DNA from: Escherichia coli
GTDB lineage: Bacteria; Pseudomonadota; Gammaproteobacteria; Enterobacterales; Enterobacteriaceae
Direction: 5' to 3' (one strand)
Length of the DNA stretch: 64,000 bases
Assembly: GCF_024700885.2 (NCBI RefSeq)
Contig: NZ_CP117016.1
In this document: one piece after another, positions 14,811 to 55,119 of the stretch
Numbering within the stretch: the first letter of the stretch is position 1
Layout of the letters: each line of letters opens with the position of its first letter
Translations under genes and position numbers: made by a program
The notes under the pieces: generated by a model
The model's input: only the letters and a program-made list of their open reading frames with translations
Told to the model about the DNA's origin: nothing
Database searches by the model: none

Positions 14811-15530
14811 ATGGCTACCCCACACATTAATGCAGAAATGGGCGATTTCGCTGACGTAGTTTTGATGCCAGGCGACCCGCTGCGTGCGAAGTATATTGCT
14901 GAAACTTTCCTTGAAGATGCCCGTGAAGTGAACAACGTTCGCGGTATGCTGGGCTTCACCGGTACATACAAAGGCCGCAAAATTTCCGTAATGGGTCACG
15001 GTATGGGTATCCCGTCCTGCTCCATCTACACCAAAGAACTGATCACCGATTTCGGCGTGAAGAAAATTATCCGCGTGGGTTCCTGTGGCGCTGTTCTGCC
15101 ACACGTAAAACTGCGCGACGTCGTTATCGGTATGGGTGCCTGCACCGATTCCAAAGTTAACCGCATCCGTTTTAAAGACCATGACTTTGCCGCTATCGCT
15201 GACTTCGACATGGTGCGTAACGCGGTAGACGCGGCTAAAGCACTGGGCATTGATGCTCGCGTTGGTAACCTGTTCTCCGCTGACCTGTTCTACTCTCCGG
15301 ACGGCGAAATGTTCGACGTGATGGAAAAATACGGCATCCTCGGCGTGGAAATGGAAGCGGCTGGTATCTACGGCGTCGCTGCAGAATTTGGCGCGAAAGC
15401 CCTGACCATCTGTACCGTGTCTGACCACATCCGCACTCACGAGCAGACCACTGCCGCTGAGCGTCAGACCACCTTCAACGACATGATCAAAATCGCACTG
15501 GAATCCGTTCTGCTGGGCGATAAAGAGTAA
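14811..15530 (+). CDS. deoD: Purine nucleoside phosphorylase
   Basis: 239-aa product [33 protein letters not shown]... Confidence 0.9.
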
Positions 15531-15561
15531 TTGTGTTTTGCTGAAAGGCGATTGCCTTGTG

Positions 15562-15593
15562 AAGCCGGAGCGGGAGACTGCTCCGGCTTTTTA
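15562..15593 (+). terminator. deo operon rho-independent terminator
   Basis: Hairpin agccggagcgggagactgctccggct followed by ttttt. Confidence 0.6.
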
Positions 15594-15660
15594 GTATCTA
15601 TTCATCAATAGCAACTGATTTATAGATTTACTATTATTTTTCATATGGATAGAAAATAAA

Positions 15661-15693
15661 ATCCATTCAAGTATCTATTCACGAATCTATTCA
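15661..15693. repeat. Three tandem 9-bp direct repeats at 12-bp spacing; fourth copy at 15596-15604
   Basis: atccattca (15661), atctattca (15673), atctattca (15685) and atctattca (15596); the last tandem copy overlaps the HTH gene stop. Confidence 0.5.
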
Positions 15694-15954
15694 TTTATGT
15701 TCAGCCGTCATCCAGGAAGGGCATATCAGCAACTCTGGTGGACAACCATAAATTCCTGCCATTTTGCTTTTGATGTTTGAACTAAGCCGTTCCGTCTTTT
15801 CGATCTGTTTTAGAGAATTAATGGAGATACCTAACATTTTACTTACTTCAGCAAGTGATAGTTTATGCCTGATACGCACGGCGGTTAGCCAGGATATACC
15901 CTGGCTGAACATTAAATTGATAATCTCCCGTTCCTGGTTTTCCAGATCGCTCAT
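15691..15954 (-). CDS. XRE-family helix-turn-helix protein, hypothetical
   Basis: 87-aa ORF with HTH segment LSLAEVSKMLGISINSLKQIEKTER; occupies the position of yjjJ in K-12 but on the opposite strand; AT-rich. Confidence 0.5.
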   Translation of the reverse strand: MSDLENQEREIINLMFSQGISWLTAVRIRHKLSLAEVSKMLGISINSLKQIEKTERLSSNIKSKMAGIYGCPPELLICPSWMTAEHK

Positions 15955-15985
15955 ATTTCCTTCCCTGGATATTTAAATCAGCGAG

Positions 15986-17002
15986 TTACCTTACCGCCCC
16001 CGCTATCCACGCAGACAACTCCCGTAGCTCTTTTTCCTGTTCCGGGAAGTCAACCAACAGCGCTTCGCACTCCTGTTGCAGCATATCCGCGCGGTACAGG
16101 CAGCCTTGCAGTCGCCCGGCGAGGGCTTCCAGCGGCGCGGGGTTGAGGCTGTCGGTAAACACCTGGGCGCGGGTGATATGGCCTTTTTCAACGTCGAAAT
16201 GCAGTTCCACACCGCCCCAGGTAAAGCGTTCATCCAGCAGATGCGAGAATGCCGGAGCCTGACCGAAGTTCCATTCCCAGCTACTCTGGCGGGCAAAGGT
16301 TTCGGCGAAGTTTGGCAAGTCTGGCGTTTTGTCCGGGGAGATGATTTCTGCTTCCACGCGCTCGCCATAATGGGCGAAAAAGGCCTCGGTTATGGCCTCG
16401 CAAACCTGCTCATGGGTGATCCCCGGCAGCAGCTCGGTGAGGTTGGTCACTCGGGAACGTACCGACGTAATGCCTTTCGCCGCCAGTTTCTTTTTATCCG
16501 GATTGAGATAGTTTGCCAGGCGGCTAAGGTCGGCATTGAGCAGCAAGGTGCCGTGGTGGAAGCCGCGATCTTTGGTTTCGCGATAGGCCGAGCCTGAGAC
16601 TTTGCGGTCGCCTTCGGCGGTTTTCACCACCAGATCGTTACGTCCGGACGCTTCGGCGCTGACGCCGAGCGCGTTCAGCGCATTAAGCACAATCGACGTG
16701 GAGATAGTTTTATCGTACTCCGGCTTGCCAGCCATAAAGGTAAAGCAGGTATTACCGAGATCGTGGAACACCGCGCCGCCACCGCTACTGCGCCGCGCCA
16801 GGCGGACGTTATCTTCTTCCATCCGCCGGGTATTACACTCTTTCCACGGGTTCTGTGCGCGACCAATCACTACCGTGTCGGCATTGCGCCAGAGAAACAG
16901 AACGCGCTGCGTGGCGGGCATCTGGCGAAAAATACACTCCTCCACCGCCAGGTTAAACCACGGATCGTAAGAGTCAGAGATGAGCAGGCGTAATGTGGAC
17001 AT
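15986..17002 (-). CDS. lplA: Lipoate-protein ligase A
   Basis: 338-aa product [28 protein letters not shown]... Confidence 0.9.
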
Positions 17003-44113: not shown

Positions 44114-44134
44114 CATCTATTCATTATCTCAATC

Positions 44135-54650: not shown

Positions 54651-55119
54651 AGCTAATGCCTGAGACAGACAGCCTCAAGCACCCGCCGCTATTATATCGC
54701 TCTCTTTAACCCATTCTGTTTTATCGATTCTAATCCTGAAGACGCCTCGCATTTTAATGGCGTAATTTTTTAATGATTTAATTATTTAACTTTAATTTAT
54801 CTCTTTATCGCAATTATTGACGACAAGCTGGATTATTTTTGAAATATTGGCCTAACAAACATTGCCGACTGACAACAAATTAATTATTACTTTTCCTAAT
54901 TAATCCCTCAGAAATCCTCACCTTAAGCTATGATTATCAGGGCTTAGGGTCACTCGTGAGCGCTTACAGCCGTCAAAAACTCATCTCATCGCTGATGGCA
55001 CAAATCCTTCAATGGTTCGTAAAAAACGAATTATTCCTACACTATAATCTGATTTTAACGATGATTCGTGCGGGGTAAGATAGTAAAAACGATCTATTCA
55101 CCTGAAAGAGAAATAAAAA

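Follow-up and report, generated by a model that had tools for sequence, protein, structure and literature searches.

What became of the gene yjjJ, also named hipH, is the question raised by a stretch of Escherichia coli DNA in which a small open reading frame (ORF) and a set of direct repeats are found between deoD and lplA, at positions 15,594 to 15,985. The whole stretch analysed, referred to below as the window, comprises 64,000 nucleotides (nt) of contig NZ_CP117016.1 (assembly GCF_024700885.2). A first-pass annotation, made from the sequence alone, had held that strain K-12 carries a longer plus-strand HipA-like gene at this position and that the locus of the window has been exchanged or decayed with respect to it. 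Both statements were borne out, as the occupant of this slot in K-12 is hipH/yjjJ, a plus-strand gene encoding 443 amino acids (aa), and its coding sequence is replaced in the window by 286 bp. For the repeats two readings had been offered, namely a binding-site array for the product of the small helix-turn-helix (HTH) gene or a relic of a lost partner gene; the second proved essentially right, with the repeats being the hipH upstream region left behind. The explanation considered probable for the locus as a whole is that hipH was replaced, that an orphan HipH operator was left and that the gene now present is a solo HTH gene of antitoxin type.

The elements retained from the hipH locus are the following.

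15593 to 15604, plus strand: distal copy of the putative hipH operator motif, AGT-ATCTATTCA (9-mer at 15596–15604), starting 65 bp 5' of the first proximal copy.
15605 to 15660, plus strand: divergent spacer, corresponding to the hipH promoter region in hipH-bearing relatives, with weak -35/-10-like hexamers (TTTACT, 15627–15632; TAGAAA, 15650–15655).
15661 to 15693, plus strand: proximal array ATCCATTCA-agt-ATCTATTCA-cga-ATCTATTCA with a 12-bp period, equivalent to hipH -36/-24/-12.
15697 to 15699, plus strand: relic hipH start codon ATG, forming the left junction, with K-12 homology ending just after it in pairwise alignment.

The four repeats noticed at first reading, three of them 12 bp apart (15661, 15673 and 15685) and one at 15596, were all recovered. 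One proximal 9-mer is ATCCATTCA (15661–15669) and the other three copies are ATCTATTCA (15673–15681, 15685–15693 and 15596–15604), giving the consensus ATC(T/C)ATTCA; the single T-to-C change in the first proximal copy is also found in Salmonella and Kluyvera hipH loci. The stop codon of the small ORF, which encodes 87 aa (tca, 15691–15693), falls within the last repeat. The phased three-copy pattern was matched once in the 64-kb window, and Tandem Repeats Finder (TRF) reported a period of 12 with 2.8 copies. Single 9-mers with at most one mismatch were found 13 times across the window versus 12.9 expected. As the single 9-mer is not enriched, the signal is the cluster and its phasing rather than the word itself.

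Pairwise alignment of the window with K-12 placed the junctions of the replacement. Homology spans the deoD terminator and all four 9-mers (the distal one and the three proximal ones) as far as the hipH ATG, where it ends, and restarts at the lplA stop codon (TAA in the window, TAG in K-12). What has been exchanged is thus exactly the coding sequence of hipH, with 286 nt in place of its 1329 nt. This stretch is AT-rich, with 34–42% GC compared with 50–61% in its flanks, and the final two codons and stop of the 87-aa ORF (CAT AAA TGA) come from the retained hipH upstream sequence. On this alignment the 12-bp-period repeats belong to the putative 5' control region of hipH and lie outside the insert, and it is regarded as almost certain that those of the window are an orphaned hipH control region.

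The hipH gene of K-12 encodes a HipA-family Ser/Thr kinase toxin with an N-terminal HTH, placed in clade X by Gerdes et al. (2021; PMC8262856), and its product scores 675.7 bits against NCBIfam NF007297. The K-12 locus shares with the window the slot (deoD-X-lplA) and the upstream region (terminator, distal and proximal 9-mers, ATG), and differs in that the window is without the entire coding sequence. No ORF of about 440 aa encoding a HipA_C kinase with an N-terminal HTH was present at the window locus in the ORF list, only the ATG and the upstream region being left. The first-pass annotation had proposed looking for the small ORF and the repeats beside an intact yjjJ in K-12. All four repeats are indeed there, directly upstream of intact hipH and ending 3 nt before its ATG, whereas the 87-aa ORF is not, its place being taken by hipH. 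Among the features by which the hipH 5' array was defined from 27 hipH loci, the window has at least three 9-mers at a 12-bp period and a distal copy 65 bp 5' (15596 to 15661); of the start and coding sequence expected downstream, the ATG is kept and the coding sequence replaced.

The association of the array with hipH was found to extend well beyond E. coli. In a scan for the exact triple, made with one genome per species, 26 species representatives were matched, 22 of which have a HipH homologue (34–95% identity to YjjJ) starting 1–40 nt downstream. The hipH loci with an array span Enterobacterales, Chitinimonas, Herbaspirillum and Steroidobacter (Gamma- and Betaproteobacteria), and four further loci which were picked through the protein and not the pattern all have this layout, the copies in two of them being slightly degenerate. 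Among 69 repeat units from 23 hipH loci, positions 1–9 are 96–100% invariant, while linker positions 10–12 vary freely. The proximal copies stand at -36/-24/-12 from the ATG in Enterobacteriaceae and Steroidobacter and from 1–2 to about 30 nt farther upstream elsewhere. Steroidobacter and most Enterobacterales loci have a distal copy 64–66 bp 5' of the first proximal one, and it is located at ATG-99 to -101 in the hipH loci of Escherichia, Salmonella, Kosakonia, Citrobacter, Buttiauxella, Cedecea, Erwinia, Serratia and Steroidobacter. The 56-nt spacer between them is wholly different among E. coli K-12, E. albertii and the window, whereas the repeats are identical. Within Escherichia there is little variation by which constraint on the array can be judged, with two substitutions in the arrays and two in the spacers of the two most divergent sequences.

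The spacer contains a -35-like hexamer in most of the 23 hipH loci, together with a -10-like hexamer whose end is no more than about 1 nt away from the first repeat. As this hexamer abuts the repeat, the proximal triple would cover the transcription start and the entire leader. Strict consensus scans for promoters and terminators were negative both for the window locus and for the region upstream of K-12 hipH, so that statements on the promoter rest on the looser hexamer survey of the 23 loci. A Shine-Dalgarno sequence is not recognisable at hipH loci (e.g., contig L001, 2631–2669), and in many of them the ATG follows the last 9-mer by 1–3 nt. In a Kluyvera genomosp. 3 contig (L013, 3273–4596) hipH matches fall into three frames or pieces, probably representing a pseudogene, and the array is intact, its first copy being ATCCATTCA as in the window.

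A candidate reader of the array is HipH itself. Nine residues proved invariant when 22 HipH homologues were compared over their first 115 aa, and five of these (S25, Q26, T28, S30 and R31) form part of the predicted recognition helix. An AlphaFold2 (AF2) model of HipH showed a winged HTH, with a predicted local distance difference test (pLDDT) score of 90.6, in which these five residues are located on the third helix. The best structural matches to residues 1–55 of the model obtained with Foldseek were ArsR/SmtB repressors (SqrR, HlyU, CzrA and BigR), with a root-mean-square deviation (rmsd) of 1.6–2.5 Å over approximately 53 residues and 21–31% identity; the E-values are weak (at least 0.14) because the domain is short. 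A sequence search of the PDB with YjjJ gave no match. The ArsR repressors act as dimers on inverted repeats, whereas the HipH domain is part of a kinase polypeptide and has direct repeats as its putative target.

The occurrence of an invariant recognition helix and an invariant 9-mer which move together between distant taxa points to binding of HipH to its own promoter. It is proposed that in hipH-bearing relatives the array would flank a sigma-70-like promoter, with the triplet covering the transcription start and a leader devoid of a Shine-Dalgarno sequence. The N-terminal ArsR-like winged helix would bind the 9-mers head-to-tail and repress the promoter of its own gene, with the distal site assisting. 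That HipH binds its own array, as suggested by these sequence comparisons, is somewhat favoured here. Since HTH-allele genomes have no hipH, the array in this strain would be without its cognate protein, an orphan operator.

Support for a repressor site at the proximal array was found in the Reg-Seq study of K-12, the evidence on yjjJ being that of its merged site table (PMC7567609, supplementary file 3). This table lists, for the yjjJ construct (zero = 4621716), a repressor-type element at +30 to +45 with no factor assigned. With the hipH ATG at 4621769, the site falls at ATG-23 to -8, which corresponds to repeats 2–3, and reaches the end of the mutagenised window (PMC7567609). Binding by HipH would offer an explanation for this unassigned site. 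In the HipH literature the HTH has only been said to be one that "may bind DNA", and both the regulation of HipH and the target of its HTH are stated as unknown (PMC8262856). Searches for the 9-mer in the literature returned only primer coincidences, and no HipH direct-repeat operator was found described in searchable papers.

A number of observations count against self-binding or lessen its certainty. ArsR-type winged helices usually bind inverted, not direct, repeats. Three Pantoea/Erwinia genomes also have orphan arrays, with no hipH beside them (L008, 9917–9949; L018, 3512–3544; L027, 1873–1905). These lie between yjjG and the 3' end of ytjB and consist of perfect 9-mers whose linkers and flanks differ; a distal copy and an intervening terminator accompany each of them. 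They could represent recent independent deletions, the presence of a hipH copy elsewhere in the genome, or another binder, the last of which would speak against HipH. In the Reg-Seq table, the adjacent upstream repressor region (-24 to +18) is attributed to MarA, the mutagenised window stops inside repeat 3, and the assay reads RNA, leaving room for an effect on leader stability (PMC7567609). In addition, chromatin immunoprecipitation with exonuclease digestion (ChIP-exo) of myc-tagged YjjJ in K-12 gave no peaks (PMC8464067), a result which may be due to low native expression or to the tag.

Several of these points are shared with the best surviving of the other explanations, which is that the array is a hipH control region bound by a host factor other than HipH (e.g., a MarA/Rob-type protein or an unknown repressor) and could still be occupied in a strain without hipH. 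This is considered unlikely, even with the ChIP-exo result, the attribution of the neighbouring region to MarA in the Reg-Seq table and the persistence of perfect 9-mers in the Pantoea/Erwinia loci in its favour. The array accompanies hipH in Enterobacterales, Betaproteobacteria and Steroidobacter, and a separate factor would need to be conserved in all of them; the recognition helix of HipH, moreover, is invariant in parallel with the 9-mer. The 9-mer is also, to our knowledge, unlike a marbox, which argues against a MarA/Rob-type binder, and we know of no PhoB/OmpR-type box, CreB tag, TorR box, DnaA box or IHF site that fits a 9-mer with a 12-bp period.

The proximal repeats might instead act as RNA, forming a leader of AUCUAUUCA repeats through which the stability of the hipH mRNA, or its translation independently of a Shine-Dalgarno sequence, would be controlled. 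The three copies do make up essentially the whole leader, no Shine-Dalgarno precedes the ATG, and Reg-Seq measures RNA abundance (PMC7567609). This explanation is nevertheless rated as improbable, as the fourth copy is located upstream of the promoter at a fixed 64–66 bp, where it would lie outside the hipH transcript, some taxa (L011, L032 and L015) have additional distal copies, and no Rfam family was matched in 15300–16200.

The other reading in the first-pass annotation, an operator array for the 87-aa HTH protein (HTH87 below), did not find support and is given very little weight. HTH87 adjoins the array, its stop codon overlaps the last repeat, and by profile and modelled fold it is a credible DNA binder. 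However, K-12, E. albertii, Salmonella and over 20 further taxa have the array together with an intact hipH and have no 87-aa gene (in more than 25 species without this gene, the array lies upstream of a hipH homologue), and the array stands at the 3' end of HTH87, not at its promoter. The one distant HTH87 homologue (contig L033) is without an array. A stop codon at Q50 interrupts HTH87 in 41% of HTH-allele genomes, and both such strains that were read have an intact array. Proteins with the XRE fold, furthermore, normally bind palindromes as dimers and not direct repeats.

A chance or slippage-generated, functionless minisatellite is effectively refuted by cross-species conservation: 12-nt tandem arrays of the same 9-mer do occur without hipH in two metagenome bins (L005 and L017), but no match was obtained in 100 shuffles, the 9-mers are invariant and the linkers variable upstream of proteins only 34% identical, and the array keeps a constant position with respect to both the ATG and the distal copy.

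In L017 (1900–1974, a GC-rich proteobacterial bin) six 9-mer copies stand in 12-nt tandem between a LysR gene and a mandelate-racemase-like gene, and in L005 (1–60, a contig binned as Methanosarcinaceae) the array is at the very end of the contig. Within the window, three more exact single copies of ATCTATTCA were observed at 44115–44123, 55092–55100 and 62651–62659 (minus strand), the number expected for a 9-mer in 64 kb, both strands counted, being about 0.5. One copy is 1 nt past the stop of a 428-aa ORF (thrC-like position), another is 28 nt 5' of the GTG of a 388-aa ORF (nhaA-like) and the remaining one is within an AT-rich 473-aa ORF.

Control of a Hip-family toxin by its own DNA-binding module has a parallel in hipBA, where HipB dimers autoregulate through four TATCC-N8-GGATA palindromic operators. 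In both cases the promoter of the toxin gene is flanked by several operator copies, and a DNA-binding module of the system represses (or, for hipH, is proposed to repress) its own promoter. The hipH sites differ in being direct 9-bp repeats of 12-bp period with a distal copy, where the HipB sites are palindromic, and they are proposed to be bound by a winged helix that is part of the kinase itself, where hipBA uses a separate XRE antitoxin. Reading of the sequence revealed no TATCC-N8-GGATA palindrome in 15590–15700, no dedicated pattern search having been made.

A wider proposal is put forward tentatively. HipH-family kinases would be controlled through a direct-repeat operator (three ATCTATTCA copies at a 12-bp period, with one 65 bp upstream) that is read head-to-tail by their own ArsR-like winged helix and has been kept from Enterobacterales to Betaproteobacteria, and where hipH has been lost (in the window and, independently, in Pantoea) the array may remain with residual effects. 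If true, the orphan array could persist as an unrepressed promoter or a protein-binding site, resulting for example in antisense transcription into the 87-aa gene and lplA. What would be new here is this conserved and precisely phased HipH operator, predicted from sequence, the annotation of the small HTH gene itself being already known. As a by-product, the prediction is precise enough to be testable in terms of the 9-mer, its copy number, its phasing and the fixed distal site.

The window locus is the deoB-deoD/lplA-ytjB-serB region of E. coli, as judged from the ORF list and from the RefSeq annotation of strain KE21, in which the locus is identical. The features surrounding the array are listed below.

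14811 to 15530, plus strand: deoD (purine-nucleoside phosphorylase), the left flank common to both alleles (ORF list and KE21 RefSeq annotation).
15562 to 15589, plus strand: deoD terminator hairpin (AAGCCGGAGC / GCTCCGGCTT, 8-nt loop, then a T-run), a perfect 10-bp inverted repeat kept in K-12.
15691 to 15954, minus strand: 87-aa solo XRE-type HTH gene, HTH87 (ORF list, HTH_3 profile, XRE fold by AF2 and Foldseek).
15955 to 15985, minus strand: the 31 nt separating the lplA stop from the HTH87 start, including the Shine-Dalgarno-like AGGGAAGGA (from the sequence).
15986 to 17002, minus strand: lplA (lipoate-protein ligase), the right flank (ORF list, KE21 annotation and alignment to K-12).

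The strict consensus scan of the window locus did not call the hairpin at 15562–15589. Between the terminator and the lplA stop (15986) a single credible ORF was found, the 87-aa minus-strand ORF in an AT-rich stretch which the first-pass annotation had described as an HTH gene; it was confirmed at 15691–15954 with an HTH_3 match above the gathering score. The locus is an ordinary one, and the 87-aa gene is already in RefSeq as an HTH-domain protein.

Nor is the allele an oddity of this strain. The allele-specific 286-bp segment (15700–15985) was matched in 4073 of 5426 complete E. coli genomes (75%), and the K-12 hipH/yjjJ coding sequence in 1348, a number which did not change with a more sensitive blastn search. 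The two counts add up to 5421 of the 5426 genomes, so overlap of the hipH and HTH alleles must be rare. No diverged hipH paralogue was found by blastn in the remaining complete E. coli genomes, those with the HTH allele being without hipH. The locus is thus a two-allele presence/absence polymorphism of which the window has the majority E. coli allele. Strains BL21, O157:H7 and enterotoxigenic E. coli (ETEC) H10407 also have the HTH allele and no hipH. Salmonella, Kosakonia, Citrobacter and Pluralibacter share the gene order deoD-hipH-lplA-ytjB-serB, and hipH is in the same slot in E. albertii, which indicates that hipH is the ancestral occupant. For this strain, a polymorphism in the presence of a toxin gene, with a solo antitoxin-like remnant and leftover repeats, is mostly a matter of tidying. 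It does mean that K-12 results on hipH (persistence, c-di-GMP control) are not applicable to the approximately 75% of E. coli strains without the gene, including the three just named.

Two further arrangements of the locus were observed. Strain XJ6-3 (L041) is a recombinant at the equivalent of window 15606–15664, in which a K-12-type hipH spacer is joined to the 87-aa gene, so that spacer type and downstream gene are separable; the breakpoints appear to be inside or beside conserved 9-mers. Strain WB61 (L051, 1498–1689) has a third, rare allele in which the array and approximately the first 48 hipH codons are fused to the 3' end of lplA, the hipH fragment being annotated by RefSeq as a partial "transcriptional regulator".

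HTH87 matched the Pfam family HTH_3 (PF01381) with 25.4 bits (gathering score 23.0, E-value 1.5e-5) and passed marginally for Sigma70_r4 (26.8 versus 24.1 bits). Its AF2 model (pLDDT 88.1) has a five-helix XRE/Cro fold, with helices at 22–29, 34–41, 45–54 and 59–69, and Foldseek matched it to CylR2, DdrO, C.BclI, SinR, P22 c2 and 434 Cro with probability 1.0 and rmsd 1.5–2.1 Å. From these predictions HTH87 is a credible DNA binder, and the predicted nature of this activity tempers the certainty of the explanation preferred here, namely hipH replaced by a solo antitoxin-type HTH gene.

The antitoxin lead suggested in the first-pass annotation was followed to the nearest characterisable relatives, which are HTH antitoxins beside ParE-family toxins. 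By tblastn, residues 2–77 of HTH87 match (30–36% identity) the C-terminal HTH of proteins of 118–124 aa in two phages and a plasmid, namely Pasteurella phage Pmp14 (gp33), phage PPyecE_EH1910 (gp290) and Leclercia plasmid pZ96-1_2 (FHN83_RS26790), each encoded directly downstream of a ParE_toxin gene in the toxin-first order of HigBA. In pairwise comparison with residues 45–121 of the 122-aa Pmp14 antitoxin the identity is 36% over 77 aa (E-value 4e-14), and the first 44 residues of the latter have no counterpart in HTH87. This N-terminal segment gave a weak RelB-like match in two of the three relatives scanned (PF18506, 25.3 bits against a cut-off of 27), a toxin-binding role being assumed for it. 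While the HTH_3/XRE domain is homologous, HTH87 thus differs from these ParE/RelE-associated antitoxins in being without the N-terminal segment and in having lplA upstream of it in place of a toxin gene. No ParE-like toxin ORF is present at the window locus, the same-strand upstream neighbour being lplA at 31 nt and the downstream neighbours the hipH array and deoD. HTH87 may accordingly be described as the likely DNA-binding portion of a ParE/RelE-type antitoxin from which the toxin and the N-terminal segment have been lost, as inferred from these alignments.

The family is a narrow one. An exhaustive search of 1.84 billion representative proteins identified members only in Escherichia/Shigella and one 43%-identical protein, also of 87 aa, on a Logan contig (DRR526040; L033, 864–1127). 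This is the only distant full-length homologue and a singleton among approximately 15 billion proteins. The contig comes from another Enterobacteriaceae genus (lplA about 80% identical to that of E. coli at the DNA level), and the gene follows lplA and is itself followed by repetitive extragenic palindromic (REP)-like hairpins and the 3' end of deoD, with neither array nor hipH. A homologue at the same position in another genus argues that HTH87 is more than a decaying fragment, and so tells against regarding it as a mere remnant. A promoter and terminator scan of the 31-nt gap between lplA and HTH87 detected none, which suggests that HTH87 is probably co-transcribed with lplA; this, too, is a prediction that leaves the explanation less secure.

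Evidence for selection on HTH87 is mixed. The ratio of nonsynonymous to synonymous polymorphism (pN/pS) is 0.2–0.4 between most intact alleles, with small counts. The Q50 stop (CAA-to-TAA, window 15805–15807) was found in the HTH87 of ETEC H10407 and of strain M11 (L044 and L045), and a 66-nt query spanning it has an exact match in 1686 complete genomes, the 41% of HTH-allele genomes given above, which suggests that HTH87 is dispensable in many strains.

Three supposed relatives of HTH87 were rejected. BLASTP against YjjJ gave only noise, so HTH87 was not retained as a relative of the HipH HTH, and no alignment was obtained with HipB, for which the query sequence was approximate. An apparent 70%-identical homologue, P0036 (L034 and L035), comes from assemblies of E. 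coli reads that had undergone bisulfite conversion; 757 of approximately 800 differences from the window are C-to-T changes, and the protein is a database artefact.

A near-perfect palindrome, AGCCAGGATA/TACCCTGGCT, was observed at 15887–15906 inside the HTH87 coding sequence, and the related CCTGGATAT at 15964–15972, just 5' of the HTH87 start codon. These could be an operator of HTH87 itself, or could be due to chance.

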